A stretch of 64,000 bases of DNA from NCBI GenBank assembly GCA_000091205.1, contig AP006499.2. The stretch is one strand, 5' to 3'. The notes beneath the pieces are model-generated. The model was given only the letters and a program-made list of their open reading frames with translations, was not told where the DNA came from and searched no databases. Each line of letters starts with the position of its first letter. Position 1 is the first letter of the stretch. The translations under genes and the position numbers were made by a program. Origin of the DNA: Cyanidioschyzon merolae (Eukaryota). Shown here piece by piece: positions 1 through 56,560 of the stretch.

Positions 1-935
1 TTTCCCTGGCACATATGTCGGCGACGCTTGCTTGCTCTGTGTGTGGCGGAGCACAGTTCCCGATAGAATCCAAGCAGCGTTGCCACCCTCGGAGGGATAC
101 ATTTCAACAGGTCGCTTTGGGCGGATCCTTTTTCCCAGCGGGTTCTTTGGAGCTGCCGCTCTCGATGCAGCTTCGTGCTGCTGAGCTAAATAAATATTTT
201 CGGATGCCTGATCCCTAATCCAAGTGAGCATGAGCGCGTGCGGCGTCATCGAGCGCATCACTTTGCAGCGCTGGTTACACAATGGTGAGGATCCCGCTCT
301 TCGCGTTCCAAATGGGTAACCACAGGGTCTTGGTTTGACCCGGACGACGTCCTTCTCTGTGCCAGTCGAGCATTGCATCAAATCACTGTGACTGGCGCCG
401 CCACCGCCACCAGAGACTCAACCTCGTTGATCCCCCTGTAAATCCCAATTCGTTCTGCACCAGGATCCGATACGCTCCGAGGTACTTGGTTGGTGCAATG
501 GGTCTCTAGTGGAAACATCGCAGGCGCATCTGAGAAAACTGTTCAGTGCCTGATACCCGGGATGGTGCCCCGCGTAACCCAGCAACAAGTGATGGATGCA
601 CACACGTGCGTTACACGGCTATCATTGGCCATACTTGGCTTAGGCGAGCGACCATCAGCGCCCATCTGCCACAGGATCATTTGGTTCGTCAGGCATTTTC
701 ATTCATGGTTCAAGTTTTCTCGCGAACCGCTTACATCGAACGGTTTCTAACAAGGCGTCCGTTCGGCAACGTCTAGAGAAAAAATCCGGGCCCATCCGAT
801 GCCCAGCATACCAAACGTGTGCAAACAGGTGCGCTGCTGCAGAAATACACACAACGGATGCGTTCGCTTCCGAACTTGCTTCCCGCAGGCTGCACGTCAA
901 CGCTGTATGATTGATCGAGTTACCAGAGCAACGCT

Positions 936-1868
936 CTAGGCTGCTTCCGCAATGTGTTCTTCGTCACGGGCTGGCGTCGCTAGCTCGGCTCGTGCATCTG
1001 CATTCGTCAGCGAGTTGGACGGTCCCGCGGGAGTGCGCATCTTCCCCGTGACACAAGCGGTTTCCTTGGCCTCAATATTGGCTACTCGTTCAAGATGCAG
1101 CGCCGAATCTCGCGCCAAACTTCTCGAGGTGGGTGCGGACTGCTCGGGTGAGGCGTTTCTTTCACGCGATGGATGCCTCATTTCCTGTGCAGGGCCTGAT
1201 AGTCGCGTATCGGGCGTTAACTCGCGCTCATCTTGTGCTGCAAGTCGATTCGTCACGAGCGGTTGCTGCAATACACGATTCATTGTGAACGCTGCTAACT
1301 CCTGCTCTTGATAGAGCTCCAACAGGGCGCGCTGGGCGTTGGCTTCGACGTCTGGGGTGACCTCACCCTGCAACGCCTGTTCGATGCTCCTCGCGTGCTC
1401 GGCTGCTTCTTGTGTCTCCAGCAGCAAGTCCTCTACACTATGCAAATCGATATGCTCGTTAAGCCTCTTCACAAGCGCCGTGCTTTTCTGGATCTGCAAT
1501 AGTGTCTGTTGCTCCAACTCTGCCGTTTCGATAAGAAGCAGCATCTCTTCGAGACGACTGAGGCACGTTTCCGCGTTTAGAACTGCTCGCTCTTGTACTT
1601 TCATTCGACGTAGCACCAACAGTGCTCGTTCACGGCGGCCTGTAGCGATCAGCGTTCGTGCAACGTCAAGCTCCCGAGCTGCGGCCTCTTCGTAGCGGTT
1701 ACGCAGTTTCGTGACGCGATCACGGGTAGCCTTGATAGCCAGAATCACCTCGTCTCGCTCAGTGATCTCTACCTGGTTCTCTGGGCGCCGGACGTCTTTA
1801 CGTCTGGCTCGTTTCCTGGGTATGACAGCATCAGCAACCGCTCTGTCGCTGACAATGCAGTTTCCCAT
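936..1868 (-). CDS. CHMP6: ESCRT-III subunit, Snf7 family (CHMP6/Vps20-like); start taken at internal Met with MGN N-terminus
   Basis: ORF 936..2027 (-). From MGNCIVSDRA... (myristoylation-type MG start) the sequence ITERDEVILAIKATRDRVTKLRNRYEEAAARELDVARTLIATGRRERALLVLRRMKVQERAVL...VEDLLLETQEAAEHARSIEQAL follows the CHMP6/Vps20 Snf7-domain pattern (coiled-coil charged heptads, acidic C-terminus). The upstream 53 codons of the ORF are treated as non-coding read-through. Confidence 0.65.
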   Translation of the reverse strand: MGNCIVSDRAVADAVIPRKRARRKDVRRPENQVEITERDEVILAIKATRDRVTKLRNRYEEAAARELDVARTLIATGRRERALLVLRRMKVQERAVLNAETCLSRLEEMLLLIETAELEQQTLLQIQKSTALVKRLNEHIDLHSVEDLLLETQEAAEHARSIEQALQGEVTPDVEANAQRALLELYQEQELAAFTMNRVLQQPLVTNRLAAQDERELTPDTRLSGPAQEMRHPSRERNASPEQSAPTSRSLARDSALHLERVANIEAKETACVTGKMRTPAGPSNSLTNADARAELATPARDEEHIAEAA

Positions 1869-2651
1869 GGAAAGCTCAACAGCGACAGCGTAATCAATAG
1901 CACCATCGCCATCGTCATCCGAAATCTGCCGTTCTTGTGCTGGCGGTACGCGCTGCCGCGTTCGGGTTCCCGCGGCTCTGACGGCAAGCGTTCCCTCCGG
2001 TCGTGTTGCTTGCATAGGTTCGAGCACCCGTCAAACGTATGCGTACAGTTCGGGAACTGAAACGAATGTTCGTGCTTCAACTTCATCAGACGTTGCGCTG
2101 CTTCCTGGATGGGCTTGTCCCGAAATTTCTCGTCGTTTTTGAGTTCCCACGTGCTGATGCGCAGCGATGCATTCTCGGAGGCTGAGCAGGTCAATGGACC
2201 AGTTCTTCAGGAGCATGGGCGTCACACGCGGGGACTGATGAAACGGGAACTCTTTATCGCATGGAGGGTCCTCTGGTTTCTAATACGCCGGGCGTCGCGA
2301 CAGCATTGGCAGAAGCGTTGCGAATCCTGCGGACTCGAAAGTCTGAATGAGGCCGTGCGAGCGCTGATCTGTGCTGGCTCCTGTCATACAGCGGCAAAGC
2401 GTCGAAGGCGCAACGCTGAAATGACGACCAGGTATCGTCCAACTAGGTGCGAGTTCGTTAGCATTGCTGCTCCACTTCAATTGTCGAATCTATAAATCTA
2501 AAGAAAAGCTCGAAAAACATCGTAAGGAAAGAACAGGATGAGCACCGATGTGTTCCATGATCATGTGGTACGACTTGTATACCTGATTAGAGACGACTGT
2601 CCGACATGCGATCCAGCAGCGTCTGTTTTTGGGCGCCGCGCAGACGCCGCT

Positions 2652-2891
2652 GACGAGCAAGCGCTCCAGGCGCTAACGAGTAATCCGTCATTTCGTGCGC
2701 GTTCATGCCTCAAACCAGCGTTACCGATCTTCAGTCCCAGTGTACATTTGCTTTTGCAAACTCGCAGTTACGACGAGCAAGCGCTCCAGGCGCTAACGAG
2801 TAATCCGTCATTTCGTGCGCGTTCATGCCTCAAACCAGCGTTACCGATCTTCAGTCCCAGTGTACATTTGCTTTTGCAAACTCGCAGTTAC
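2652..2891. repeat. Perfect tandem duplication, 2 x 120 bp
   Basis: Unit gacgagcaagcgctccaggcgctaacgagtaatccgtcatttcgtgcgcg...ttttgcaaactcgcagttac occurs back-to-back at 2652-2771 and 2772-2891. It is visible as the duplicated peptide DEQALQALTSNPSFRARSCLKPALPIFSPSVHLLLQTRSY in ORF 2538..2972. Confidence 0.85.
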
Positions 2892-5566
2892 GACGAGCCT
2901 ACTGCGAAAGCGATGTGGCCTCTGGTTGCTCGCCCTGCATGGAAACGCACCTTCGATTTTCTCGCCATGTGACGTTCGATCAGCTCACCACACACCGTAT
3001 CGCGCATCCGACTACGCTCTATAGTCTTCTTCTGTACTGGTTTCAGCGCACGCCCGTACTCGTGGTTCGAGTACGTCGTACTGAATTCATGGATGGGAAT
3101 CGTGCAGCACCGAAACCTGCACGCGTTGGACGCGCTCGTCGAAATGGGCAGCGGCGCAGTATTTGCGAGTTTCAGCCTGTCCCGTGCCAAGGGCTGCTGC
3201 AAAATGACGCAAATTTTTGAGCTACTCCTTTTCCAGCTCGTTGAATAGCAAGGCGAATGTCCGCCTCGTGCCTCCCTACATCCGAAACATTACGAGGCTC
3301 TGGCGCGGTCGGATATACTCTTGCCAAAAGTCGTCGAAACGAACAATTTGGACGCTCATTTACTCACTGAATGCAGCGTACCATACCAATCGTTGCTTCT
3401 CGATACAGTGACGAGAGCGTCGAGATCGGTCCTGCCGTCGTCATGCCACTTGTTGATATGCTTCCTCACGACCACTGGGCCCGAACTTAGATAATATCGA
3501 GGCTCAGAAAAAAAGTCAGGCCGTGGTGCATCTTCAGTACCGCCCGTCGGTTGTTCCACAAAGGTTTGACCGAGGAATTCTGGGGGCATGTGAGCGCCTG
3601 GTAGCACCTCGCCCCGAACTCCGACAATCATCTCACTGACGTTGTACGTCAAGGCAAGTGGGGCCGAACAAGACCTTCCCGAAAAAGAAGCTGCAGAGTC
3701 CTTCATGGCTTCCCGCATCTCACAGTTTTGTAAGATTCTTCCCGTAGATGCGTTTTCGTACGGAGCTCTTGCCAATGATTTCACGCAGATCCTTTCACAC
3801 AGGCCGTTTTGCGTTCACGTACTTTCTCGTCCTCTTTCTGAGCGGATCTTTCTCTTCTTTCTTCTGTGGTTTCTTCACTGTCTCGTTTGCATGATGGAAG
3901 GGCACGGGTGCCGTCGCTTAGCTCTATGTCCGTTTCTCCCTTGGGTCCTAGACGCACTGGATGGATGTTGCGACGGATCTTGGCTTTCTCTATCTTTGTA
4001 TCCACTATACTTCGAGCATCTTTTCGCCAACAACCCCGATGCAAGCACGTCTGCGAACCGAAATGCGCCTTTCCATTCTCTTCTGCTATCGAGCACATAC
4101 GCAACGCCGTTGCTCACGGCTAGTGAGGCTAATGAACGGCTTTCCAGAGAAAAATTCGTCTACGAACGGTGTCACGGATGCGAATGAATCGTCTATGGAT
4201 GCGAAAGCTTACAAACGGCGTTTGACAGCATAGAAGCTGCTTCCGATTTGATACAACCAAGGAGAATAGGCTGCCACAAAGTGCAGATTAACGCCATCAC
4301 CGGCTGTGCGCTCTCTGGCCAGTTTTCGGGATGCAAAGCGACGTAGTCTACGAGCCGGACAGAAGACCACCGGAAGAAGAACCCGCAATGCGCTCCGATG
4401 AAGGAAGAGGCGTCAAACGATCCCGTCTGTTTGGGGATGATTCGGTGAGCAAACGACAGCATCGCCGCTCGGGCTGATGTCGCTTTCATTCCCGCTTGTC
4501 TTTTCTTTACGAAGAGCGGTGTGCCGCTACTCTAGGACCCCAACACAGGTCTACCATTTCTCCGGAATGAAGTCAGGTCGACTAAAACGAACATCCGTGC
4601 CACGTGTCGTCAGCGTTCGTGTTCCAGTACGAATTCGCTGGAGTGCGCTTCGTCAGCGTGCGATGCGCTCCCGAAGAAGCGCGCGTCGTTCTTCGCCTAT
4701 CTGCATCGCTTCACCACTGTTCGTTATCAAGGGTATGGAAACGTTGCATGCATGCTGTGGGTTTTTGGTAGTATTTCATAGAGAACGGATGCAGTGGCAT
4801 TGCCTGGCGAGGAAACTGTTGTATATATTGATTCTGATGAGTTCGAGTTCGATTGCTTGACGCTGAGCATATCGCCTAAGCGAACGTTCCTTCATCAACT
4901 TGCTGAAAGTTCAGTAGCTGATTCGTAAGAGGATGACCTGTTTCCGCAATCAAGCAGCAACAGCATAAAATCTTTCCACATTCTCACTCCATTCCGAAGG
5001 ATACAGTTATTTTGTTGCATACCTGCGAAGAAATAAACCAGGACAAAAAGTATATTCTGGTTGAGGTATTCTGGTACCACCGATTATGAGCGTAACGGTA
5101 GCGGCAGCGCGTCCGTGGGCATCGCCGCTGTCGCTCTTCGAACCGACGCCCTTTGTGGTTCGGCACTGCCGTTCTGTCTCCGTGCAGCGACCGCACCGGC
5201 GCTACAGGCGCTATTGCTGCCGGTTTCGGCAGGCTCGGCACACGATAGGGCGTATGAAACGACCAGAATATCCGAGATGAAGTATAGGTCATGTAACCTG
5301 AGAGTAGGAGGTTGATGGCTACCTCACCGCACACTGAAAGAAAAACACACACAAAGAAAATAAGAAACGAAAAATGCGCATAATCGGAGAACGCTGGCCT
5401 ATGGAAACGTTTTGTCCATGAAAAGAAAATGTGCCGCTGTCGCTGCGATCGGGTTGAAGGGCAGCGCGCCGGCGGCGGCGGCGGCAGCGCCAGCGACCCT
5501 AGACACTAGTCATAACCTCGCCGCTGCTGACATCATTCTATTGCCGCTGCGGCCTTTCAGAGCTTT

Positions 5567-7234
5567 TTGATGGGCAAGCTCTACCTTCTTTTCGAGGCAG
5601 CGTCGGGATATGCGATCTTTCGAGTGGTGGAGGCTGAAGACGTAGCATCTGGTACGACTGCGGTACAGTCCTCGTGGGGAGACTTCCACCGCTTTGCGAG
5701 CATCGTCAAGTTGCGAGCCTTCGAGCCGTACGTCTCAGCGGACCAGGCACTTGAGGACGTGAGTGCCGTGTCGGAAAATCGAGTGACGCCTTTCCTACTT
5801 GAGTTCGTTCGCGGTTATTTTGGCTCGAAAAGATGTCTTCTGGGAGTCTCGGAACCGCGGTTTGGCGCAGCGCTCCAGGAACAACTGGGAAAGAAGCACG
5901 TGAGAGTTGTTGCGGACGAACACATCCAGGAGCTTTTGCGAAACATCCGGCAGCACTTCGAGAAGTTTCTCAGTGCGGAGGTCTCGAGCGAGGAGCTCTC
6001 GAAAGCACAGCTCGGTCTGGCTCACGCGTTATCCCGTTCGCGCATCCAGTTCAATCCGCAGCGCAATGATCACGCCGTCGTCCAAGCGATTCATCTTATC
6101 GACCAGCTTGACAAGGATATCAATACTTTTGGGATGCGTGTCCGCGAGTGGTACTCCTGGCACTTCCCTGAACTTGCGAAGCTCGTGAGCGATATCGTTC
6201 TCTACTGCCGTTTGGTGTGTGCTCTGGGCATGCGCTCCGAAATGACGACGAAGCAGGAGGAGGACGTGAATAGCCTGCTCCATGGCGATGAGGAGCTCAC
6301 GCAGCGGATTCTTCGTGCAGCCCGCTCCTCAATGGGAACGGAAATCAGCCCTCTGGACATCATTCAGATCCGTTTGTTTGCGCAGAGAGTGATTCAAATG
6401 GCAACCTATCGGGACCATCTGCAGGGCTATCTTGGTCAGCGCTTATCGCTGATTGCACCGAGTTTGCGGGCGTTGCTCGGTGATCACGTCGCAGCGCGAC
6501 TCATTGCGCATGCTGGCTCTCTGGTGAACCTAGCAAAGTATCCTGCATCAACTGTGCAGATCCTTGGCGCAGAAAAGGCGCTTTTCCGGGCTCTAAAGCA
6601 AGCACGGGGAAAGCGGCTCGCGCGAACGCCCAAGTATGGGTTACTCTTCAATTCGACATTCATTGCCAAGGCAAAGCAACGAGCCAAAGGTCGCATTTCG
6701 CGTTACCTGGCGAATAAAGTGAGCTTGGCAAGCCGCATCGACTGCTTCCGCTCCGATAGAATCGGCGACACATTCGGTCGCAAGTTGCGAGAGCAGGTCG
6801 AGGAGCGGCTCCAGTTCTATGAAAAAGGCTTGCGACCTCGGCGCAATGCGGCCGTAATGACTGAGGCCATGAACGAGGCGCTTGCCACCAGCGCCATGGA
6901 TGACATGCGTGGAAGCGATATCGAGGAAACTCCGAGACCTGCAGCCGCTGGCCTACGCGCTGATCGGCTGGAAAATTCTTTGCTTGTTTTTGGCTCGGCA
7001 ACCAATGCGGATGCAGAAGGCGTACCGGAATCTGCGGCCCCGGAGACGCCAGCCCATGACGTCATGATGCGGAAACGAAGCCACGATGACACATCGTTCG
7101 TTGATGCGGGTGACGCCCATTTGACGACACTGGGAGCCCAGGATAGTTCTCGAGAAGCAATTCCTCGTGAAGCCCCGCGGAAGAAGAAGAAACAAGACAA
7201 ACATCGCGCCGAGGCGGTGCACGAAACCGTGTGA
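5567..7234 (+). CDS. NOP56: Box C/D snoRNP protein Nop56 (Nop5/Nop56/Nop58 family)
   Basis: 555-aa ORF with a NOP5 N-terminal domain ([14 protein letters not shown]), a Nop core domain (...[43 protein letters not shown] closely follows the Nop56 consensus [21 protein letters not shown]) and a lysine-rich KKKKQDKH C-terminal tail. Confidence 0.85.
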   Translation: [555 protein letters not shown]

Positions 7235-8820
7235 CCAAGCAGGCGCAAGGATACTATCTAAATGCTCTGGGCACCGTTTGCCACTCACTGGTTAGAATGA
7301 CGGTGCCGTATCCGTGCTACAGGTGCAGAAGATATCGGTAGAGGGAGAGCGAACGTTCTCTGAAACCAAGTTCGTCTCAGAGCGTTGAGCTCTGGTACAT
7401 CTGTATCAGCATGCTGCTTTTCCTTTTGTTTGTGTTTCTTGCAGGCATTCAATAAAAGGCATGCATCTTGTAGATCTGAGAAAGGTCGCGGAAAGATCAC
7501 GCTGTCATTGTCAGCAGCAGAAAATGGTCGCTCTCATACGAGGCAGTTATTCTGTGATCAGATGGTGGATGAACCACGCTTCTCGAAGAGCTGAACGTCG
7601 TGCACGCCAAAAAGAACTTGTGAAACTCTCTTCACACGATTTTCTCTTCCTTAATTCATTCCAATCCATCTGTACACTGAGAAACACGACCAAACAAGCC
7701 GCAGGCTGTGAGGATGATGCATCGTTGGTACCACCGGTGATGAAAAGGCACGGATGGAAAACGTGAACAGCACACCTCTTTGGAAGACACTGGCCCTATC
7801 AAAGCTACACGATCGATTTCTTTATGTGATGTGGATCCGTATTCACCAACGGGCGGATATCCGTCCTACTCTATGCAACCTTATTCAGGAGCATTACCAG
7901 ATTTGCGTAGGAGTCCTCCAGGAGGGCCAAATCGAGCTTCGTCGAGAAGCGACACGCGCGCGTTCCGACGACATCACCCGTGGCGGCAATGCTCTGATGC
8001 GGTTCCTTCCAAGTCGCCAGACTGACAAGATCGCTCGACACCGCATCCTCCGTTGAGGCGCTCGTCTCGGATTTGACGTTTCGCATGCTTCGGGCCTGAT
8101 CCCAGACGACATCTCTTTCCGTCACTAAAAAGCGGTCAACGAGCACGCAAAAGAGAAAAGCGTTGCGCTGCTCTTCCTCCGAATCCAGTCACTTTCGATG
8201 AACCCAGCCAAAGGCATGCCAGTCCTGTCTCCGAATCACCTCTGTTCTGGCCCTACAGACGCTATTCCGGATGATCAAGGCAGACTCGGCGACTGGTGGA
8301 ACATACGACATAGCCGTCATTACCGAAAACAAGTACGTGTGGAAGCTGGTGGTACCCTGGGGCACGCTGCAAAAATGATAGACGCGCTCCCCGATGTCGA
8401 TCACGTACCACGCTCTCCGGAACTCGCTTTTCACGCCACCGTTCTACGAATGTTGAGCGTGCATCAGATCATCGCTCCTCGCGTATCACACTGACCGGGA
8501 TTCCTGTTTCATGGCAAAGTTCCGTGGATTGCAAACAGCCACGGGATCAGCGGATCCGCCTCCGCGTTGCCGCTGCCGTTCCTGGACGAAAACGATGGTG
8601 CTGGTGCGCCGCCCAGCCACCCGGCTCTGTCTTGCCGATACGCAACACTTTCCAGCAGCGCTGTACATGTGTTGCCGCTGTTGTGCGCTTTCACCGATGA
8701 CTGTAGAGCACGCGGCGTCCGACTTGCTCGCATATAGCCTACGGTTTTGGAACTAGCGTATAACGCGTTTGTGCTCGTCTTGGCCACTCCATTGACCCGT
8801 TTACGACCCAGCGTCCAGGG

Positions 8821-10387: not shown

Positions 10388-13300
10388 TCAGCGGGCAGTT
10401 ACAACCAGTGGACCGGGATACGCAAACGGCAGCTCGCTGGCTTCCCTGCGCCCGGTAGTCTCATTCAGCGAGTGATGCTGGATTTGACTCAGGCCCTGCC
10501 GGTTCCGAGTCACATAGATGTACGAGTCAGCGTACTCCCGAATATGAAGATAATCGAGGAAGCGCTCTTCATGGGTTATGAGTATAAGCTGAAAATTGCG
10601 TTGCTGTGCACGTTGTTGGATCAAGAGAGATAGCGATGCAGCGAGCGCTTTCACGTGGCTCTCGTCCAGGTTGGTCGTCGGCTCATCGAGCGCGAGGACC
10701 CCGCAGGCGTTCCCAAAGTTTTCCGCCAGCGCAAGGCGGATCAAGAGACATGCGAGCACTTTTTGTCCAGCCGAGCAGCGACCACGCATATCAAGCCAGG
10801 TATCACCCTGGCGCATCACTACCCTGTAGTGATAGGTCCGACGACCCATTGGAAGCGAGTCCGCCACAAAGTCGGATCGTATCTCGATTTCCTCGATATC
10901 GGAGCCGAGGTAGGTGCTCTGCCAGAGCTCCCGCAGCACTCGATTGATGCTGCGCATCTTGAGATCGTGATAGCGCATGATGGCCAAGTCCAGCGCCCGA
11001 TGGTAATTGCGCAAATCCCTGCAGACCAGCTCGATCACGTCACACTGCAAACGAAGCGCTTGGAACTGTTGCTCCGCTTGTGCAAAAACGTCCGCATCGA
11101 GTTCCACGGTGAGTGCCCGCAACTGCTCTGCGAGTAAATCACGCTGACCACGCAAATGATGAACTTTTTCCCGGAGCGTATCGGCTTCCGCTTTTGCCGC
11201 CTCTAACGCGGACACGTGCGGATCGTGTTCATCGGTCATTGGCAGGGTGCTTGCTAGCTCCACGTCTTTCTGTTGCAATTCGACGAGCATTTCCTGCAAC
11301 TGGCGGTACCGAAGGTTGTCGCGCACTTGACGCAGATACGAATCGGCGTTCTGGCGTTGCCCGGCCCACTGAGCTACAACCTGCACTGCCTGCGCTTCTT
11401 CGGCGAGCGTCTGTATGATTTGCTCGCGGCAGGTCTCGAGCTGCTTGTGGGCAAGTTTGTGTGCGTCACCTTCGAATCGTCTCGACTCTTGGATGTAGAC
11501 TTGAAGTCGGTTTTCAAGACGGATAAGATCTGTATGGATTGCTCGGTGTCGCGAACGAACGGCTTCCAGACGCGCCAACAACGCTGCACTCGCCGGTGGC
11601 GCTGCCTGCAACAGAGCTTCCTCTACTTTTTGATCCAACGCGCAAAGGGAAGCCTGCTTTTCTGATCGCTGTTTGCGTTTTTCCGCCAGACATGCTTCCA
11701 GCTGGTCACGGTCATGCTGCTTGGCGCGCTCCGCAGTGAGTTCCTTCTCAGTGGTCTGGATTAGATCATGGAGCTCTTGAGCGCGTACAAGGAGCTCTTG
11801 GCGACGCCCAAGCAGCGTGTCGAGTTCCCCCCGCAACGAAGTCTCTTCTCTTGCCAAAGCGTCCCCCGCGGACGTCGGTTGATGCGGTGCTTCGCGGGTG
11901 TCGACTTCCAATGCTGCAACTACCGGCGACGAAGCTGCGATTCCGGATGCCGAGCTGGGCCCCGATGGTGCCATCTCCTGACGCAAATGAGCCAAACGTC
12001 GCGCATACCAGAGGAGCTCTCGGGCATCGGCCAGTTCATGTTCAGCGACTTGCTGATCCGTTCGTTCGCTCCGTCTCGCATCTTCTAAGCGCTGGATCTC
12101 GGATTCGGCGCTGCGAATGCGAGAGATGCTTCGCTGCTCCTGTAAAGTGATCGCAGCACGCTCCTCCAGCAAACGCCACTGATGCTCCGCCCTGTTCAAA
12201 GCATCCTGAACGTATTCCAAGGAGTCGGAGTCTGCCGCCTGGGTCAACGTATTTCGTACTCGAGCTAGGGCGGACTCGACATTGGCCGCCTCGGCCATAC
12301 CGCTGAAAGCGCGGTCGCATAGCGGACAGGTTTTCTGTTCGTGCACGCGCTTGCGCATTTCTTCGAGCCAATTCGCTTGTCCGTCACGTTCTAGGGCTGT
12401 GCTCTCCAGCTCGAGATGTCGACGTTTCAGCGCTGAAATTTGAGATTTGAGGCACTCTGCATCCACTGTGCCTGGTTGCACACTTGCGTCGATTTCTCGC
12501 AGGCGGCTGCGCATCGAGAGCAGCCGTTCGCTTTCTTTGTCGCAAATAGCGCGCCGCAAGCGCATCTCCAGTTCCGTGCCCATGATGCGATTGCGTACGG
12601 CTGATAGATTGCGTTCGGCGGAGGCGAGACGATCTTGCGCTTCGGAAACGGAGCAGGATGGTAGCCGCCTCTGCTCCAGTAATCGTTGAATGGATGCTTC
12701 CTCTTCCTCGCGAAACTTTTGGAATGCCGCGGCTATCGCGCTTGCATTCGTGTCACCACGAGTAGCCGTGTGCGTCACGTCATTTCGACGAGAGGCCAGG
12801 TTTTTCGTGCGTACTTCGAAAATTTGTTCAAGACGTTTCCGAATAGTAGACATTCGGTCCATGTCGGTCTGGTTCGAAAGCTCTTCGTCCACCTGCTGCT
12901 TTTCTGCCTGAAACTGGACTAAAAGCGCCGATTTCATCGCCACAATCTCGACATTCATCGGGAGCGACTGCAAGCGTGCAGCGGTTTCCGCGCATGCTTC
13001 CTCCAGAGTGGCGATTTCGTTCCGAATCTGCTGCGCCTGACGCTGATCGGATTCCAGTTCGAGCTTCAATTTTTGTTCACGCTGGAGTGCATCCTCCCAG
13101 AGGCGCTTGAAGTGCTCCATTTCCCGTTCGCAGTCATTGCGAGAACGCTCCAGGATATGGATTAGATCCTTGGCACTCCGCTCAATGGCTCCTTCTCCTA
13201 TGTCCGTGCCATCAATCGAATGGCTTTTCCGGATTTCCCGCAGCAATTCAGCACATGATGCACGCTGCCGCTCTATGGCTGCCTGTTGGCAGCTGTAAGC

Positions 13301-14356
13301 AGCGCATTCCTCTTGGAGACGCTGCTCGCGATCCCGCAGAAGCTGTAACTGCTTTTGCAACTGCAAGCTCTCCTCGGATGCTTTTCTGTACTCAGCATCA
13401 ACTTGACTGTACTCAGCAGTGATGCGAGTAAGCAGTCGCTCCAGATCTTGGGTTGTTTCCGTGAGTTCTTTGCCGAGTTCGCGCCATAAACGATCACGTT
13501 CCTCAGTCCGGATTCGGATTTCGTCACGCAGCGCCTGCAACTGCCGGCGCCGTTCGACCTCCTTTGCACGCGCTTCCTCAAGCTCTGTGACCGCTCGTAT
13601 TTTCTCACTCAGTTCCGTTTCGAGGGTCCCCAGCGAATTCGACCATTCGAGGCATTGGGCTTGCATGCTTCGACAGTTTCGTTGCTTTTGCTTCAGGTTT
13701 TCGAGGCGATCCCGCCAACGCTCTAGTTCCGAATGCAGAATCTTGAGTTCGGCGAGCTTCTGCTGCGCACACTTCTGAATCGCGATGAGGGCTTTTGCGT
13801 AACCGCGTGCCTCGAAAATATCGTCGAATTTTTCCTTGACTTTCTTCGGATCTTGCAACGGCCATAGGGACTCTTCTTGATGAACGAAAATCACGTTCTC
13901 TAGAACCGCCTGGCGCACACCAAGAAACGCTGGAGCCATCGCATTAATGTCATTGCATCGGTTTGAGGTTTTGATGTGCTGTCCGTCCTTGTCCCGAATG
14001 CTGAGGCTTGTCTCCACGGTGCTGAAACTCTGTTTCCCAGCAGTTGTGAGCCGAAGCTGGAGCTGGCGGTTCACGGTAATCTGTCGACCAAGCGCGTCTT
14101 CAAATAGCAGGCGAATTTTGGCCTTCGTTTCCTTGCTTTCACGCAAACGTGGATCGTGCACAAAAGCGGCGCCTTTGTCGACGAGCGGCGGCAACTCGCC
14201 AGTCGTTGCCAAGCGCAGGCACTCCACTATGGTAGTCTTTCCGGTGCCGTTCGCCCCCAGTATGACGGTTATCGGCGCCTGGAAGCGTAGGCGTTGCTCT
14301 TCATCCGGACCGAAACTCCGTACGCCTGAGAAGCCTAGTTTGATCAGACGTGACAT
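10388..14356 (-). CDS. RAD50: DNA double-strand break repair protein Rad50
   Basis: About 1322 aa. N-terminal Walker A ([20 protein letters not shown]...[29 protein letters not shown], cf. human MSRIEKMSILGVRSF...GPNGAGKTTIIECLKY), long coiled coils, a zinc-hook CPLCDR (...[12 protein letters not shown]...), and C-terminal signature/Walker B/D-loop ([42 protein letters not shown]...ILITHEERF). The ORF track starts at a GTG at 14362, and the first ATG is at 14356. Confidence 0.92.
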   Translation of the reverse strand: [1322 protein letters not shown]

Positions 14357-14440
14357 AAACACACGAACAGGCGACCTTTCTCGCGCCTAAACGACAAACG
14401 TTGCTGCGGTCGACAGCATCGTAGTGGCGGCGAACGCGCC

Positions 14441-16704
14441 CTATCCAAGACGTCTCCAACTGATGTGCAGACGCGTCCCAGTCTTTTCGGACCGGCCACC
14501 TACTAATGCATTCGACTTCTTCTCGTATATATCCATCTTGACAGATTGTCCCACAAAATGCTCTCGTGTCAATTCGGGAGGTCTCGTCTCCAGCACCGCA
14601 CATCTTATGTTGATTGCGGCATTAAAACGTCGGTTCACGAACTCCATATGTTTCTTGCCGTTGCTTTTAGAACTCACTCATGCACGTGGCCCTTCAACTT
14701 TCATCCTCCTTTCCATTTGCTCTTCCGTCAGCGCTCCGTACTTTTCTATATCTTCAGGGCTCAGCTGACACTTTTCCATCTCGACTCTCTGAAGTGTGCA
14801 CCCCGTTCATGGTGTGTATACGATGTTCGAAACTCATCTATCGGTATCGTAACGATACGCCTGGCGCATTCCTTGTACGTTTTTGTCGACGGAGCTGGCG
14901 TAGTCCCTTTTTTGGACGCCCTGCTGCATATGCTTCTACTAGCCTTTGACTCTCGTCCTCCGTGAAAGCGCTCAACTGATTGAAAAAGTTGGCGAATGCA
15001 CGCTGCTTCCTACAGTACATGTTCATACGCTGCCGAGCCGGCCGGGGCGTGGTACACTCTCCTCACAGCACATCCCAATGAGCAACGCGAACTTGTATGA
15101 ATTTCAGAAAAGCCTCAAAGTTCGCGCCGCGGCTCGTCACCTCGCTCAAAGCTTCCAGGTGCTCTTTCACTCCTGCATGCCATGTCTCACTTTTCTTCCT
15201 CGCATTCATGATTCCCGATTCTCGATAGAATCCCGCTCTCGAGAATCTCAAAAGACGCACGTCTTTCTGGCGCAAGTTACCGTCGATGCTCTCTTCCATA
15301 CGCTTCGGTGCTGCGATGGTTCTGATTATCGTGTGTTCCCATGGTCCGAGCCAGTGACAAAATCGTTACCCTGAACTTTCTGCGTCACTGGATCCGCCTT
15401 TTTGTTTTCTTCATGCTTCGTCATGGGCGATATCGAAGACGTAACTGGACGTTTCGCCTTCAAGCGCCGATAGTGTACGCACATGGCTACTCCATCGGTT
15501 TCGATTATCCCAGTGAATACCTTTTGCTTGCTTACTTTGAGTCGTTTGAAATCGAAGGTATTCTTCCAGTAGGTCTCCCGGTTTTCACCGGGGAACTCCG
15601 TGTTGCTTTCATCGAACTCCGGACGGATCTCCTTCGTGATGCTGTAGAGGACTCTGGAGTCGATGGTCACAAAATTTGACTCGATGTTGCACAACGGAAC
15701 GCAATTGAAGCGCTTCCCCATTAGGAAAGCCTTACGTCTCTCCCACTCTTCATTGTTTTTCCTTACTCAGCTTCATCTCCGCGTTGCGTTCTAGTTCTCG
15801 GTTCAAAAACATGAAATATCGCAAGACGAGGCGATTGTATCTTTCCTTATCTTTTTTTCAACTCTGATATCTTTTCCGCTGGACTCGCCAGCCCCAGTAC
15901 CGCACGGTGCTCTTGTATAACCGCACGGATTACGGAAGCTTCATTTGTGCCCTCGTTTGACGCCTTCTTGTCGACGAATTCGACCTCATCTTCATGCTTG
16001 GGATCCTTCGTGATGCCATTGATAATCGCCCACATTCCTTTGCGAGAGATGCCAGGGTACAGCGCAAACACGGCGCGTATCATGAAATGTTCGAGGTTCA
16101 CTGTGAAATGGTTCTTCAGGTTCGTGATGTACTTCATCGCTCCGTAGGTGTAAATATCCGCTTCACCCTTGTATCGAGTACCGTTGAAGCGGTATTCGGC
16201 GTAATTTTCGTGAACGCCATGCACTCGCTCATTTCTCCTCGACGGTTCCCCTGTACCAAGCATCAGGTGACGAATAAAGGTCTTGTCGAAAAACTCGTAC
16301 GGAACCTCGTCTGTTTCCATGTGCGTCACGTCGCGATACATCTCCTTTACGAAATGCAGCAGTCCTGACGATGCCTTTACAATACTCATGGGGTACGAGT
16401 CGACACGGTTTCTGATGGCGTCTCGCAACTTTTGCCTGCAGAGATCCTTGATATGCCCAAAAAGACAGGCTTTCACCACCATCTCGTCGTTGTGTCGTCT
16501 TTCGTGCGGGTTCTGACTTCGGGCTTCCCTGTTTTGCTTCTTCGTCTTGTCTTGTTCCTCTTTGCTCCGCCATGTTTTTCGTTGTCTCCGGCAGCCAGTG
16601 ACATTTAGCCTCCAGGTCCTCAACTTGCTTTTCCATAACTTTCTTGTATTTATTTTGGAAAGGAACGCACGTAGAACGCTTCTGCTACAAACGGCGAAAA
16701 TCAC
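14441..16704 (-). pseudogene. Degenerate Fanzor/TnpB-like nuclease ORF (copy 1), multiple frameshifts plus in-frame TGA
   Basis: Minus-strand ORF pieces 15847..16704, 15326..15721, 15063..15299, 14838..15026 and 14441..14677 concatenate into one protein homologous to copy 3. Motifs: [10 protein letters not shown] (RuvC-I-like GxDxGxT), YKECARRIVTIPIDEFRTSYTHHE (cf. TnpB V-x-V-NPAYTSQTC preceding the zinc finger), and ...KHMEFVNRRFNAAINIRCAV (TnpB RuvC-III ADxNAAxNIlrrG, but the catalytic Asp is Arg in this copy). There are two frameshifts around 15722-15846 and an in-frame TGA before the RuvC-III segment. Confidence 0.6.
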
Positions 16705-16913
16705 TTGAATGAGCTTACTTGAGGGTTGGAAAACAATTCAGCTGAAAAACTATACTTTGCTATTACTTGAACGCAAATACAACTTTTACGGTAGAACAAC
16801 ACGCAAATATTCAGGATCGCGTTTCCCTTCAACGGCGAGATACTCCTCCTGTCTCATGCCTGCCAGATATCCCAGGTGTGCGTATCGACCACGCTATATA
16901 GAACAAATAACAG

Positions 16914-17568
16914 AGACTAACGATGAACTAGCAACGATATAAATATTTATTCCCCCTAGATGAAACGTTAAAAACGGTAAAGGCTTCCCGTACTGTCGAA
17001 AGTTTACCTTACAGGCGGAGGGTCCCGCGAGCCGGGCGACTCTGCTGGGCTGGTGCCCGGTGTGCCTCTAAAGTGGCAGGTGCTGTGGCGAGACCTGAGC
17101 AACTCGTCCGAAACGCAGTTCAAGCTGGAATAAGGGGCATTTGGCCTGCGTTTCAGCGTCGCCCCGGTCGCAGTGGACTCCCAGCATATCGCTTCGCGCT
17201 GCCGCAGACAGTATGTCTGTCCGCGTAGCTTGCAGGCTCCCCGAATAATTATGTATTCCGACCTCGTGTCGAGTGCACCACGCCTCGAGTCAACGCCCGC
17301 AGCGGAACAGCAAAGCCGTACAGTCTCCGGGATATATCTGCTCTGGCGGTTTTGGCGCCACCGCGGGGGCCGCAAGGCAGGCACTCAGCACACGATAGCG
17401 TGTACAAAACGACCCGTATACTCGGGAGGAAGTAAAAGCAATGGAACTTGAGGGCAGGTGCTTCATGATGGACGCCTTTTCGATTACCACTATCCATCCC
17501 GCAATCTGGGATCCATGGTCGATGGAGACGAATTTTGTCATCGGAAAAAATCGATCGCCATCCCATCG
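16914..17568. repeat. Repeat A (655 bp), the 5' non-coding module of the Fanzor-like element; near-identical direct repeat of 18844-19497
   Basis: About 99% identical to 18844-19497, with only a handful of substitutions and one 1-nt indel by eye. A roughly 80% diverged homologue lies at about 55925-56550 inside copy 3. Confidence 0.9.
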
Positions 17569-17781
17569 GCCTGATGGCGCTCCTGATGGCAATGCGCGCC
17601 TGTATACAACAGGGGCGCGAAACTGTCTCGGTTCCCATACGGGTCGTGTTTCACGTTAACGCTGCTCGACTCCTGTGTGTTTGTGTGTGCCCGACGTGAT
17701 AGTGGCCAAGCGGGAAGGCTCGCCCTTCTTTCCATTGAACCGTTATGCGTGGAATCCTCACCTGTAAAACTACCTGTTGTG

Positions 17782-18384
17782 ATGCAGAGACCTTTGGTTG
17801 CGCTGAAGATCGTTCTCGTGGGCAATAGTGCAGTGGGCAAGTCATCTCTCTTGCTACGATTTGCGGAAGGCACGTTTGCGGAACTGCCAGCCACAGTAGG
17901 CGTAGACTTTCGAGTGATCTCACTGGAAAACGTCCAGGGCTATCGTGTCAAACTCACCTGCTGGGACACCGCGGGACAGGAAAAGTTTCGCACCCTGACG
18001 TCATCTTATTATCGCGGTGCACACGGTGTTATTATGGTGTACGGTATAGATGATCCAGAGTCGCTGAAGCATCTTGAGACAGCTTGGCTAGAAGAAGCGA
18101 GACGGTATGTGAATAACCCAAACGCTGTTTATATGATAGTGGGCAACAAATCGGACCTGCCGACTGCTGTGGTGCCCAGGGCAGACGGGCGGCGACTCGC
18201 TGAGCGTGTTGGCGCACTCTTTCTCGAGACAAGTGCAAAGTCAGGTTCTGGAGTATCGGAGTGCTTTGTAGAGCTTGTTGCACGTATATTGGAGGCACAA
18301 CCCCATGTAACAGGTGATGGCGAGCAAGCAGGAGTTCAACTGGAAGCCGGTCCGTATCATGAAACAGCCTCATGTCTTTGTTGA
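17782..18384 (+). CDS. Rab-family small GTPase, Rab18-like
   Basis: LKIVLVGNSAVGKSSLLLRFAEGTF...VGVDF...WDTAGQEKFRTLTSSYYRGAHGVIMVYGIDD...VGNKSDL...ETSAKSGSGVSECFVELVARILE and a C-terminal CLC prenylation motif. This matches the Rab18 pattern GVGKSSLLLRF / [27 protein letters not shown] closely. The ORF track begins at 17677, and I take the Met at MQRPLVALKIV as the start. Confidence 0.8.
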   Translation: MQRPLVALKIVLVGNSAVGKSSLLLRFAEGTFAELPATVGVDFRVISLENVQGYRVKLTCWDTAGQEKFRTLTSSYYRGAHGVIMVYGIDDPESLKHLETAWLEEARRYVNNPNAVYMIVGNKSDLPTAVVPRADGRRLAERVGALFLETSAKSGSGVSECFVELVARILEAQPHVTGDGEQAGVQLEAGPYHETASCLC

Positions 18385-18843
18385 TCATCGCCGAGCTGAG
18401 CATCGCGCTGTGCACACTAGACATGATTCGGAAGCGATGGACCTGGATTTCGAGCCGAGTGGGGAGGCTCTGCAGCTGAATAGCACCAAGCTTGTAAAAT
18501 TCTCCTAACAACATACATATTTGCAGACATTAGGTAGTGCACAATTTGATGACCCGCACAACAGCGAGTTTGCGGTATGTCTCGAAAATCCAGTGGGCAT
18601 GTGCAGAGATACACATATGAGGTACAAGGCAAATTCCACAAGAATCCGACGATGCGTCTCAAGTGTACGGATTGTTTGTCCACGTCATCGGTGCATAAAG
18701 AAGCCGCTACACGGCACCGTGACGCAAAGACAGGTATCACACCGACGCTTTCAGAAAAGTACACACTTTGCGTAGCGCATTGCTGCGCGTCTTTCCAAGG
18801 TCCAGCGAAACCGAATCGAGCCTAGATCGAGGTGCACAGCAGG

Positions 18844-19497
18844 AGACTAACGATTAACTAGCAACGATACAAATATTTATTCCCCCTAGATTAAACGTTA
18901 AAAACGGTAAAGGCTTCCCGTACTGTCGAAAGTTTACCTTATAGGCGGAGGGTCCCGCGAGCCGGGCGACTCTGCTGGGCTGGTGCCCGGTGTGCCTCTA
19001 AAGTGGCAGGTGCTGTGGCGAGACCTGAGCAACTCGTCCGAAACGCAATTCAAGCTGGAATAAGGGGCATTTGGCCTGCGTCTCAGCGTCGCCCCGGTCG
19101 CAGTGGACTCCCAGCATATCGCTTCGCGCTGCCGCAGACAGTATGTCTGTCCGCGTAGCTTGCAGGCTCCCCGAATGATTATGTATTCCGACCTCGTGTC
19201 GAGTGCACCACGCCTCGAGTCAACGCCCGCAGCGGAACAGCAAAGCCGTACAGTCTCCGGGATATATCTGCTCTGGCGGTTTTGGCGCCACCGCGGGGGC
19301 CGCAAGGCAGGCACTCAGCACACGATAGCGTGTACAAAACGACCAGTATACTCGGGAGGAAGTAAAAGCAATGGAACTTGAGGGCAGGTGCTTCATGATG
19401 GACGCCTTTTCGATTACCACTATCCATCCCGCAATCTGGGATCCATGGTCGATGGAGACGAATTTTGTCATCGGAAAAATCGATCGCCATCCCATCG
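18844..19497. repeat. Repeat A' (solo copy of the element's 5' module), direct repeat of 16914-17568
   Basis: Near-identical to repeat A. It is not accompanied by the Fanzor-like ORF and lies between the Rab18-like and p23 genes. Confidence 0.9.
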
Positions 19498-19622
19498 ACG
19501 CGCTTCCAATGCCTTCGCGGAGCCGACGGCGTCCGCGTGTCCCGCAGCATCCGTATCTTGTTGCGTCTACTTAGGTGCGCAACACAGGTAACAGAGTATT
19601 CGTCTGAGATCAGGTACGTGAA

Positions 19623-20333
19623 ATGGTGCTTACTCCAGATTTTTGTTGGGCGCAACGCAAAGACAAGGTATTCGTCACCGTGAAGGTTCCAAACGTGCAG
19701 AAAGACACTGCTGTCCTGAAGGTCACCCCCGAAGGACAGGTGTACTTTAAGGGAACCGGCGGTGAGATTGGGCACGAACGGGAGTATGAGCTCGACATTC
19801 GGTTGCTTCACGGAATCAAGGCGGAGGAAGCACAGCACGGCATCCAAGCGAGGCAAGTGTACTTTGTGTTGCCTAAAGCGGAGGCCGGTGAATGGTGGCC
19901 ACGACTCCTTCACGATCCGGGCCGAAATGTACACCTGTCCGTGGACTGGAACCTCTGGGTCGACGAGGACGAGGATGATCAGTTTGATTTCGGTAGTCAC
20001 TTTGGATCGCGTGATATGGCCGACCTGGACTTTGGAATGGGTGACGACGACGACCTTGGTGACGACGAGGACGACGACGACGACGACGAAGGCGTTGATG
20101 GCGAGGGCGGCCTCGGCGACACGGAAGAAAAGGAGGACGCCCAGGAAGCCGCGGCGGACGTGACGCCGACGTTGTCTGAGAACCACATGCACCGCGATCA
20201 GGAGGCAGATGAGAATGACGTTGTTAAGAGCGAGCCAGGTACCGTGACTGAGGCTGCCAAGGATCTGGGTAAAAATGCCGAGTCCGTACAGGCAGCGTCA
20301 ACCGAGGGGCCTGCGTCAGTGTTTTCCTCTTGA
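19623..20333 (+). CDS. HSP90 co-chaperone p23/Sba1-like (CS domain) with poly-acidic C-terminal tail
   Basis: PDFCWAQRKDKVFVTVKV...WPRLL...LSVDWNLWVDEDEDD parallels human p23 (WYDRRDYVF...WPRLTKE...LSVDFNNWKDWEDD), followed by D/E-rich low complexity (GAC/GAG repeats at about 20040-20100). Confidence 0.75.
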   Translation: MVLTPDFCWAQRKDKVFVTVKVPNVQKDTAVLKVTPEGQVYFKGTGGEIGHEREYELDIRLLHGIKAEEAQHGIQARQVYFVLPKAEAGEWWPRLLHDPGRNVHLSVDWNLWVDEDEDDQFDFGSHFGSRDMADLDFGMGDDDDLGDDEDDDDDDEGVDGEGGLGDTEEKEDAQEAAADVTPTLSENHMHRDQEADENDVVKSEPGTVTEAAKDLGKNAESVQAASTEGPASVFSS

Positions 20334-41698: not shown

Positions 41699-41858
41699 GC
41701 AGGTGCCTCGCGTAACGAGTGCTGTCCAGGGGTTGCGTTGGCGCCGGTGTGCTCATGTCCATGAAGCGATTTGCTGGACGGTGTGCATGATTGTACTGTT
41801 ATGTACTGTAATACAAAGTTTGTACGGAATGCCGGCTTTACGCGCACTGGGGCTGCCT

Positions 41859-42126
41859 CGCGTGCCCTGATCGTGGCCCTTGGCATGCAGAAACTGTACA
41901 GAAACGGATTTTGCTGCCCAGACATGTCGCGTGCCCTGATCGTGGCCCTTGGCATGCAGAAACTGTACAGAAATTCCTTTTCCTGCCCAGACATGTCGCG
42001 TGCCCTGATCGTGGCCCTTGGCATGCAGAAACTGTACAGAAACGGATTTTCCTGCTCAGACATGTCGCATGCCCTCATCGTGGCCCTTGGCATGCAGAAA
42101 CTGTACAGAAATGCCTTTGCCTACCC
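41859..42126. repeat. Minisatellite: 69-bp unit x about 4 (units start 41861, 41930, 41999, 42068)
   Basis: cg[c/g]tgccctgatcgtggcccttggcatgcagaaactgtacagaaa[cggattttgctg/ttccttttcctg]cccagacatgt repeated head-to-tail, about 90% unit identity. It lies between PRA1 (-) and the DGAT1-like gene (+). Confidence 0.9.
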
Positions 42127-45645: not shown

Positions 45646-47675
45646 ACCGCCAGTACGTTAAGTTTGGTATCGACGGTGGCGACCCAGAACAACGCACCTG
45701 CAGGAGAATTCGTGAAGCGTTGCGCGCTTGAACGCAATGTCGATTCGTGGTATGGGATCGTTGATACGAGGCAGGCGGTGAACAAATAGTTAGATAGATA
45801 ATTAGTTAGTTAGAGCGTCATGAGTGCTTGTATCGCTGGATGGTACCACAGCCATGATCGAGCTGATGCTCGTGAAGCGATCTATGTTGCTTCTTCGGCA
45901 GAAGGTGTATATCGACGGGGGTTCTAAGTTGCACGCTGGACATCAGCGATCGGGGAAAAACGTCCATCGTTCCACCAACCTTGAAATTCCAATCATCATT
46001 ACGCTCACCAGCGATAACGGTCATTTTGTACGTTCAGTCGTGCGTCGGGCCTAGTGTGAGCGACCGCAAATGGCCCCTCTAGCACCTGTGTGGAAGGAGC
46101 ACGGAGATAGAATCCATATCCCAGGCAGGTAATGGTGTCGGCTCGAGGCCCGGTTCATCGGACGCGGGTTTGGGAGTGATCGTCGACGGGTGCTCCGGCA
46201 GTCTCCGGGAAGCGACTAGGTGCGTTTCAGCAGACCCCAGCGGTACATGCAACGCCGTCGCAAGCTTCTGCAGAAAGTCTGGCAGCTGAAGAATGCCGCG
46301 TTGATCAGGTCACGACGTTTTTCGTAGGATACTGGACGTGAACAAGCGGAACGTGGATTTGTCCGGTAAGGAGCAAAGGTCACTTCCCTGGCTACAAGCA
46401 GCATGCACGGATGGGTTAGCGTTCTCGTTCAATACATTGGTGCTACGCTTGCAAACGAAACGCTAGCATTTTCCGCTCCTCACATGCTGCATACATGGAG
46501 CACACGGCAAACGAGCACGAACGAAACGCCAGCATCACCATAGCACTCCGCTCGTGTGGCACTCTCTAGGATGCACATTGATCTCGCATCATAGCAAGGG
46601 TGCCGCTTGGGATCCCTGGTTCATCTCATCGATTGCTCACCATGAACGAAACATGGATCTCGGGGAGTCGGTCGTAGACAAGTATTCGCAATGCCGGGAG
46701 CCCGCCGGCCATGCAGATGCAGTACCCCGTACGTCTGGGATGATCACGAGATCCGTTTTCATGTGGGCGTCTGTCATGCTTCATTGCGGGTATCTCGTGC
46801 CTCTTTACCATGCGGCAGTGAGGCATCCGGTGTACTACCCGCTCATACCGGAGCGCGACCTATCGAAACGTACCGAGAACAAGAGCCAAGGTTACTGATA
46901 GCATGACGCAGCGCGTCACCATCTGTGTCAACGACGACAGGTGACCCCTGCTTCACACTCGTGCAGCTGTTGCCATCGATTTTGGTACCATACATTCGAT
47001 GGGTACCGCGGTTGCTTGAACACATCGCGAAGGATACATGAAGCGTTGACACCATGCAGTCGGAACACTTCCTCGACACTGGCGGCGTGGTCGTTCTCCA
47101 AACCGGAATCGATCCACTTGGGATGATGGTGTCGGCGAGTCGCCGCTGCCGGAGGTGCTGCAGCAATTTTGGCGCTTCTGGTATCCCAAAAGCGACACGT
47201 CCTAGACGGCATTGTGTTGCTCTGGTGGAGGCACCGTCGTCAAAAAGCGCATCCTGCCTGGTTCCGTGCATTTCAGGTCGCTCGGCGTTGCAGTCGAGTC
47301 GAGAGAATGCCCAGAACTGTGGCGACTTTCCCATGTACCGGATGCGTATTCGTGTACACGACCATGAACCTGGTGCGACTGAAACACCACGCTCATTCCG
47401 TATGGACTATGAGACTCAAGACAGACCCGAATGATACACATGGCACTGAGGTCTACGATTTCATCCGCATGGACATGTGAAGCATGTGCGAGATCAAGCA
47501 ATCGTTTTTTTCCAGGGACGCTGTAGCACCGCTGGATCAAGGTCGATCCCCAACTAGGCGTGCGAACGCTATCGAGCATGCTCCACAAGGTTCATCGAAA
47601 ACAACCTCTGCACCATGAATACAAGTAGAACATGCAGATCCTACACTTGCGGCTGAACGGAAACGCTGAACGCCC

Positions 47676-50379: not shown

Positions 50380-50770
50380 ACAAGTGACGGAGAAGAACAA
50401 GAAGGGAGATAGGTGAGAAAATGTATTCGTCCGAAGTGACGATGACGAGACTTTAGTGTCACAGAAGACGCGAGTTCTAGGAATCCTCCTATCGCTGAGT
50501 TCAACCAACGGCAGGAAACGCATTGAGTTCGTGAACCGAGACTTTAATACCGCCATCAATATCAGACGATGTGTGGCGTTGGAGACGAGTCCCGAAGAAC
50601 CAAGGCAATGCAACTTCATGATGCAGCCTCTGACGCTCGTCGTACGACTGGATACACCGAGGCCGATAGCAGGCGGCCGGGGGAAAAAGACTGCGAAGCG
50701 TTTGCGGAACAGTATGTATACACTTACCGTTCAGGATCTTAGGGCGTTGTCCGTTTTCACTCATCACATA
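50380..50770 (+). mobile_element. Truncated 3' fragment of the Fanzor/TnpB-like element (copy 2), plus-strand orientation
   Basis: Plus-strand frame reads RVLGILLSLSSTNGRKRIEFVNRDFNTAINIRRCVALETSPEE, homologous to copy 3 RVKFRGLLAMESATSCNKKWMEFVNRDFNAAINIRRRAVMERR. Downstream, the conserved tail aggcggccgggggaaaaagactgcgaagcgtttgcgg matches the rc of the copy 1/3 tails (gtaggtggccggtccgaaaagactgggacgcgtctgcac). Confidence 0.5.
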
Positions 50771-56400: not shown

Positions 56401-56560
56401 TGCGGGTGGAGCTATGCAGGCACTCGGTGCACGATAGAACAAACGAAACGACCAGTTTCTCCCAGAGAACGTATACATCATGGATCCTAAAGGTAGCACA
56501 TATCGTGAAGGAAGCTTCCCTGAATGCCAGTATCCATGGTCAACGTAAACATTCTTTCAA
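53468..56560 (-). mobile_element. TnpB/Fanzor-like element, copy 3 (3' tail + degenerate ORF + diverged repeat-A-like 5' module)
   Basis: Colinear homology with 14373-17568 over the entire length, including the non-coding 5' module (55700-56550 vs 16700-17560) and the 3' tail. It fills the IMPase(-)/CBS-domain(+) intergenic region. Confidence 0.6.
53604..55749 (-). pseudogene. Degenerate Fanzor/TnpB-like nuclease ORF (copy 3); RuvC-III Asp retained, one nonsense codon and at least 2 frameshifts
   Basis: Pieces 55338..55532, 54425..55315, 53838..54536 and 53604..53810 (-). Motifs: [18 protein letters not shown] (RuvC-I-like), YKECARRFVTIPVDEFRTSHTHHELGCTLQRVEMEKC (TS-motif plus degenerate Zn-finger), and MEFVNRDFNAAINIRRRA (RuvC-III D-x-NAAxNI-RR). 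There is a TAA after ...SPEDI where copy 1 has GAA (EKYGALT...). Confidence 0.6.

Follow-up and report, generated by a model that had tools for sequence, protein, structure and literature searches.

How did the Rab18 gene of Cyanidioschyzon merolae come to lie between two almost identical copies of a transposon-derived sequence, and do these repeats delete or duplicate the gene? The locus is part of a 64,000-nucleotide stretch of nuclear DNA of strain 10D, on contig AP006499.2 (NCBI GenBank assembly GCA_000091205.1), here termed the window, in whose coordinates positions are given unless another contig is named. A prior reading of the sequence alone had offered three origins for the two copies, repeats A and A′: a very recent local duplication, gene conversion, or a second element that had lost its open reading frame (ORF) and tail. 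Local duplication fits best. Repeat A belongs to a decayed CMe-1A element that carries a Fanzor1 gene, and forms the 5′ non-coding module of that element. Judged by the differences that the two repeats share, A′ is a late copy of this neighboring module, or of an almost identical template, and not an independent old insertion.

Two near-identical direct repeats enclose the Rab18 gene

Self-comparison of the window by BLAST aligned positions 16913–17568 (repeat A, minus strand) with 18843–19497 (repeat A′, minus strand, 655 bp) as direct repeats over 656 columns with 98.63% identity and one gap of 1 nt (E = 0). The reference copies differ by eight substitutions and one indel. Identity was uniform to within 20–24 nt of both edges, and the edges are sharp: flanking segments of 40–120 nt on either side aligned no better than shuffled sequence (p = 0.12–0.99). 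The sequence-only reading had the repeat coordinates right within one base, each left edge being 1 base off. Its claim that the repeats enclose an entire Rab18-like coding sequence (CDS) was upheld by the self-alignment and by the ORF within the intervening 1,274 bp (segment X, 17569–18842), which contains the complete Rab18 gene. The repeat pair is real yet ordinary: both copies belong to repeat families already described, and the genome is finished. The correspondence between the short element and the 5′ end of the Fanzor1 element has been in the literature since 2013, and there is little new biology in the arrangement as such.

Repeat A is the 5′ module of a CMe-1A element

The CMe-1A elements of C. 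merolae are ~3 kb in length, are present in ~150 copies that are ~80% identical to the consensus, and are without terminal inverted repeats (TIRs); their target site duplications (TSDs) were not determined, and CMe-1 was placed in Fanzor1 (Bao & Jurka 2013, Mobile DNA 4:12, PMC3627910). The consensus of 3,169 bp from supplementary file 2 of that paper was used for alignment. The element adjoining Rab18, copy 1 (14389–17568, minus strand), has its 5′ end at 17568. BLAST matched consensus positions 1–3130 to 17543–14421 with 84.9% identity, and nhmmer lengthened the match to consensus 2–3161 (17542–14389). Repeat A spans consensus 1–628 and a further 25 bp in the 5′ direction. A second element, copy 3 (53473–56559, minus strand), was aligned by BLAST over consensus positions 45–3169 at 82.0% identity and by nhmmer over positions 4–3169. 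These alignments with the consensus directly demonstrate, at the level of sequence, that the window elements belong to CMe-1A.

Copies 1 and 3 have the layout of CMe-1A, namely the 5′ module, a spacer of ~270 bp, a 734-amino acid Fanzor1 ORF and a short 3′ tail, and the RuvC-type motifs GADPGNTN, DEFRTS and NRDFNAAINI are found here. As in the original description of CMe-1A, neither a transposase nor a TIR or TSD could be identified in the window copies. Unlike the consensus element, both window copies are frame-disrupted. The ORF of copy 1 is broken across three frames (tblastn, six-frame view), and copy 3 is frameshifted. The consensus protein was recovered by tblastn as residues 18–733 in copy 1 and 1–734 in copy 3 (48–82% identity), split among frames in each case. 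By these disruptions, both copies are pseudogenes.

The proposal that A is contiguous with copy 1 and forms its 5′ non-coding module was confirmed by the consensus alignment and by matched divergence: in comparisons with copy 3 and with the copies at loci L035 and L056, the module of copy 1 is as diverged as its body. Therefore, A is native to copy 1. Copy 3 also bears a diverged version of the module, as had been proposed, with ~78% identity between copies 1 and 3 by BLAST when the module is included.

Repeat A′ shares the private differences of repeat A

Repeats A and A′ have 145 differences from the consensus in common, with 7 differences private to A and 2 private to A′. Every other retrieved family copy was ≤78% identical to A. 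These include at least seven family loci in metagenomes (67–76% identity to A), which were recovered by a DNA scan with the conserved 18-mer CTGCGGCAGCGCGAAGCG that also produced chance matches in GC-rich bacterial contigs. Taken together, the common differences and the distance to the other retrieved copies indicate that A′ was copied from A or from an almost identical sequence. A search of protein collections for ORFs that start in the 5′ end of the module returned only the A and A′ loci, which speaks weakly against more near-identical copies, depending on such short ORFs having been called. The descent of this solo copy from its immediate neighbor is the mildly new point of the locus: a solo module with the private mutations of the neighboring element is a small clue to how the CMe-1A family makes short derivatives.

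The age of the copying was gauged against neutral divergence at the locus between strain 10D and wild strains, which was 1.1–2.8% across the decayed element body and spacers. Repeats A and A′ differ by 1.4% and A′ is present in all sampled wild strains, so the copying dates approximately to the coalescence of those strains. It is therefore late relative to the family, whose members are 15–20% from the consensus, but not very recent. The term "very recent" applied previously is overstated in view of the presence of A′ in all sampled wild strains and a divergence equal to that between strains.

Repeat A′ is a unit of the TE-N2_CMe type

The limits of A′ match those of a described family. TE-N2_CMe occurs in ~70 copies without TIRs, and over its whole length it matches the 5′-terminal 635 bp of CMe-1A at 95% identity (Bao & Jurka 2013, PMC3627910); the comparison of A′ with TE-N2_CMe was made through this published relation to CMe-1A, rather than with the TE-N2_CMe consensus itself. 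Only positions 1–628 of the CMe-1A consensus aligned with A′ (80.6% identity), which places its 3′ limit no more than 7 nt from the end reported for TE-N2_CMe (628 vs. 635). No Fanzor body was detected beyond A′, as the adjoining sequence was not significantly similar to consensus 629–700 (p = 0.06) or to copy 1. The sequence beyond the end of A′ is the host Rab18 3′ region. As the limits of A′ match TE-N2_CMe, it is a transposon-type unit and not an arbitrary duplicated segment. Thus, the earlier description of A′ as a solo copy was correct, but missed that this solo unit corresponds to the TE-N2_CMe family.

The likeness to TE-N2_CMe extends to the host species, the non-coding ~635-bp CMe-1A 5′ end, the lack of TIRs and the position of A′ alone between host genes. 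Two differences were noted. First, A′ is 655 bp and runs 25 bp past the published consensus start. Second, its identity is 98.6% with the neighboring CMe-1A copy but only ~80% with the consensus, which argues that it derives from that copy and not from a separate TE-N2 master. Additional module-only or truncated copies fit a common solo family: one metagenome locus (L104) holds a module-only copy that ends near consensus position 661, and nhmmer detected two strongly decayed module-only fragments in the window at 45899–46201 (plus strand) and 8212–8403 (minus strand).

At the other end of the unit, a T-rich tract, often preceded by CGAT, lies just 5′ of the first consensus base in each of the seven independent copies. 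The corresponding region is at 17544–17568 in A and 19474–19497 in A′. The published CMe-1A consensus start therefore seems to lie ~14–25 nt inside the true 5′ end. The outermost 11 nt of the repeat, CGATGGGATGG (17558–17568 in A), was seen in A and A′ only.

Two other types of mobile element resemble the locus in part. Like solo long terminal repeats (LTRs) or LTR pairs, A and A′ are near-identical direct repeats of a few hundred bp that are able to loop out the intervening DNA. However, the sequence between them is an ancestral host gene rather than the interior of an element, the repeat occurs once per CMe-1A element and at the 5′ end only, and no reverse transcriptase, primer-binding site, polypurine tract or TSD was found here. 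Since the enclosed host gene is syntenic in species that lack the repeats, the locus does not qualify as an LTR retrotransposon or solo LTR. A common 5′ end, a variable 3′ end position and the lack of TIRs are reminiscent of Helitron or IS91-type elements, and the Fanzor1 elements of Chlamydomonas are Helitron-associated (supplementary table, PMC3627910). Nevertheless, no Rep/helicase gene, TC…CTRR termini, boundary 3′ hairpin or A^T target was present, and the similarity is one of resemblance only.

Origin of repeat A′

The following series of events best accounts for the locus. A CMe-1A element of 3.2 kb inserted, in the C. merolae lineage, into the promoter gap of ~275 bp between the Rad50 and Rab18 genes, antisense to Rab18. 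This element, copy 1, then decayed in place, as manifested by its frameshifted ORF and a distance of ~15% from the family consensus. Much later, its 5′ module, or an almost identical sequence, was copied in the same orientation into the spacer between Rab18 and the p23 gene, 1,274 bp away. That step dates to ~1.4% of divergence ago and preceded the split of the sampled wild strains. The most likely route would be mobilization of the module in trans by the machinery of the family, as a TE-N2-type unit, and its reinsertion nearby. Late copying of the copy 1 module as such a unit into the next intergenic spacer, with mobilization in trans and local reinsertion as the favored route, is considered the probable origin of A′.

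Several points weigh against this interpretation. A decayed element that is ~15–20% off the consensus would be a poor transposase substrate. No TSD or target motif was found at the insertion, and the junctions showed no microhomology beyond a possible "CAG". The marginal, non-significant similarity of the A′ flank to consensus 629–700, if real, would fit conversion of an older insertion. If the outer 11 nt were host DNA, A′ would have arisen by segmental copying, not by transposition. Finally, the comparison covers the copies, at least seven, from the metagenome scan, and other near-identical copies elsewhere in the genome would lie outside it.

The alternative that survives best, although it is rather doubtful, is gene conversion or concerted evolution, in which an older TE-N2_CMe insertion at A′ would have been overwritten by A, or the reverse, with repeated conversion over 1.3 kb. 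C. merolae readily recombines homologous DNA. Moreover, variants at alignment columns 254, 288, 321 and 557 differ among strains in the metagenome loci, yet within any one strain A and A′ agree at these columns. This pattern was set aside as evidence of concerted evolution because within-strain identity looks alike when a short-read assembler traverses one graph edge twice, and in the metagenome contig L002 the differences between A and A′ all lie within ~60 nt of unique flank. The T5/T6 length variant in A′ of 10D also is found in A of another strain, but homopolymer length changes recur easily. Conversion would further accord with the marginal similarity of the A′ flank to the consensus and with the last 6–7 nt before the TE-N2 end (consensus 629–635), which differ more than the remainder. 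However, copies that originally were ~70% alike should show unconverted margins and a mosaic pattern, whereas identity is instead uniform near the edges. Conversion at an end of homology also cannot make the outer 11 nt that are common only to A and A′. Moreover, a divergence of 1.4% needs no homogenization, as it falls within the 1–2.8% observed between strains.

A more speculative variant of late copying, considered fairly improbable, is that TE-N2 solo modules perhaps are remade repeatedly by partial copying of CMe-1A elements. Such copying would begin at the 5′ end, stop internally near nt 630, make use of decayed templates and land nearby. If so, partial copying would imply one-ended, rolling-circle-like or template-switch spread of a Fanzor1-carrying transposon, with A and A′ as an example caught in the act.

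It is very improbable that A′ is instead what remains of a second, full-length CMe-1A element that was in tandem with copy 1 and whose Fanzor gene and 3′ end were deleted, as the sequence-only reading had entertained. Internally deleted or truncated CMe-1A remnants do occur in the window (50149–50761; 5132–5416 with 2922–3502). Nevertheless, the deletion would need to stop within 7 nt of the TE-N2_CMe boundary and to spare the host Rab18 3′ region, and no CMe-1A body similarity is left beside A′. Module-only copies with the same limit form a recognized family, of which the metagenome locus L104 provides another example. The weakest proposal, that a misjoin or a duplicated pile of reads in the reference created the second copy, can be dismissed since assemblies made independently from different samples, at least six in number, give the order L-A-X-A′-R or its junctions with the same flanks, and the reference copies are distinct in sequence.

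The repeats in metagenome assemblies

Four independent metagenome assemblies (L002, L003, L005 and L131) contained both copies with the same flanks. Four other contigs (L133, L134, L141 and L142) started in the last 122, 44, 16 and 26 bp of A, respectively, and extended across X and the entire A′ as far as the interior of the p23 gene. The arrangement therefore is not a misassembly, which had been named as the outcome that would overturn it.

Recombination between direct near-identical repeats would in principle be able to loop out Rab18, and the arrangement had been viewed as a substrate for unequal recombination that would delete or duplicate the gene. No reliable product of such an event emerged, and the metagenome contigs provided no trustworthy instance of Rab18 loss, gain or circularization. 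The 131-kb contig L001 (sample 3300005861) has a single repeat (7015–7670 of that contig) and is missing exactly 1,930 bp, including Rab18. It was rejected as a Rab18 deletion allele because the same sample holds Rab18 on L146, a contig of 1,575 bp in which X with Rab18 is preceded by the final 121 nt of the repeat and followed by its initial 168 nt. Thus, the Rab18-less L001 is best explained by collapse of the repeat.

Contigs from five samples (L136–L140) were "circular" versions of window positions 16913–18842, with a period of 1,929–1,930 bp, terminal overlaps of 119–123 nt and different rotations. Two further contigs (L135 and L143) followed X-repeat-X paths, and the two X ends in L135 differ by 4%, which points to a strain chimera. 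Extrachromosomal circles or tandem amplification were considered for these seven contigs but are less likely, as graph loops from a collapsed repeat are the simpler explanation; the 1.93-kb circles and X-repeat-X paths most likely are assembler loops of this kind. Short-read assemblies of Cyanidioschyzon systematically collapse the locus and yield false Rab18-less contigs along with 1.93-kb circles. Calls of Rab18 presence or absence from such assemblies are unsafe. For annotation, positions 16913–17568 and 18843–19497 should be masked as CMe-1A/TE-N2_CMe and the ORFs inside them disregarded.

Rab18 is in its ancestral position

The Rab18 CDS (17782–18384, plus strand) encodes a protein of 200 amino acids (BAM82087.1) that matched the Pfam Ras family (E = 6e-47) and has a C-terminal CLC motif. 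The protein clusters with BAM82087.1, annotated as "small GTP-binding protein of Rab family". The best named Rab18 matches outside Cyanidiales were Rab-18, RABC1/RABC2a and RB18B (46–55% identity), and Rab18-like appears a fair name for the product. The left neighbor is a Rad50/SMC-type gene (10388–14362, minus strand) with an ORF of 1,324 amino acids, for which SMC_N and AAA_23 domains were found on orthologous gene calls. The right neighbor (19623–20333, plus strand) encodes the Hsp90 co-chaperone p23, is an exact match to BAM82088.1 and has a CS domain. A citrate synthase gene downstream of p23 is an exact match to BAM82089.1 of C. merolae 10D.

The gene order Rad50 (minus strand), Rab18, p23 and citrate synthase (plus strand) is kept in Cyanidiococcus yangmingshanensis (L127) and in a second metagenomic lineage (L128/L129). 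In these relatives Rab18 lies ~200–300 bp from Rad50, and no CMe-1A or TE-N2 homology was detectable at either locus. As two relatives have the gene order without the repeats, Rab18 occupies its ancestral site, and A and A′ are both insertions that occurred in the C. merolae lineage. Comparison with orthologous loci, which had been put forward as a check of the arrangement, showed A′ in every sampled wild strain and neither repeat in the two related lineages.

Copy 1 occupies the former divergent promoter gap of ~275 bp between Rad50 and Rab18, ~30–60 bp from the Rad50 start codon (14363–14423, 17569–17781). Repeats A and A′ end 213 and 125 bp, respectively, upstream of a plus-strand host gene, and both point away from that gene. 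These positions may reflect insertion into promoter regions of a very compact genome.

Affiliation of the CMe-1 protein with Fanzor1

BLASTP aligned the CMe-1 consensus protein with the C-terminal half of the Pythium PUl-1 Fanzor1 protein (E = 2e-6) over 255 amino acids of the RuvC/zinc-finger region, and the alignment ends in the NRDxNAAxN motif. The Pfam Cas12f1-like_TNB family matched the CMe-1 protein with E = 0.028 and 15 bits, below the cut-off of 26.3 bits. Sequence searches of the PDB with the single CMe-1 sequence or with a profile of 20 sequences gave no match, and an AlphaFold2 model of the protein had a mean pLDDT of 36.6, which is too low for a fold search. In characterized TnpB and Fanzor systems the guide (omega) RNA is at the 3′ end, a position outside the repeated module. 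An Rfam scan of positions 14000–20000 produced no match.

Hairpin and short ORF within the module

The module includes a hairpin at 17110–17154 (minus strand) with a 9-bp stem and a 27-nt loop, which previously was described as strong. In A its free energy is −17 kcal/mol (z = −1.8), but in A′ it is weakened by two substitutions (z = −0.3). In eight copies of the family, pairing holds for 70.8% of cells, which is not above the shuffle control, and no compensatory changes were found. The hairpin is therefore present as described, but is neither conserved in the family nor accompanied by covariation. Folding of the whole module gave z = −1.9 for the sense strand and −0.6 for the antisense strand, and RNAalifold returned a covariation term of +1.57.

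An ORF of 126 codons (17004–17384, minus strand) has a twin in A′ (18934–19314, minus strand). It was rejected as coding because stops or frameshifts interrupt it in all six of the other family copies examined, and no Pfam match was obtained. The doubt that had been expressed about its significance was therefore justified, and it is not a gene. No function of the repeats is demonstrated.

Other family copies and repeats

Counting copies 1, 3 and A′, seven pieces of the CMe-1A/TE-N2 family lie within the 64 kb. One is an older and far more decayed full-length CMe-1A copy (5132–5416 with 2922–3502, both minus strand). Another is an internally deleted copy at 50149–50761 (plus strand) in which consensus 778–1015 is joined to 2803–3131. 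In the metagenomic CMe-1A copy L056, a stretch of 75 bp within the Fanzor ORF (consensus 2119–2196) is tandemly triplicated at positions 2162–2314 of that contig, which produces repeated peptide units. Self-comparison of the window also revealed short tandem repeats at 41858–42126, 2652–2898 and 58471–58603; the units seen were ~69 bp at 93–96%, 120 bp at 100% and 72 bp at 95% identity.

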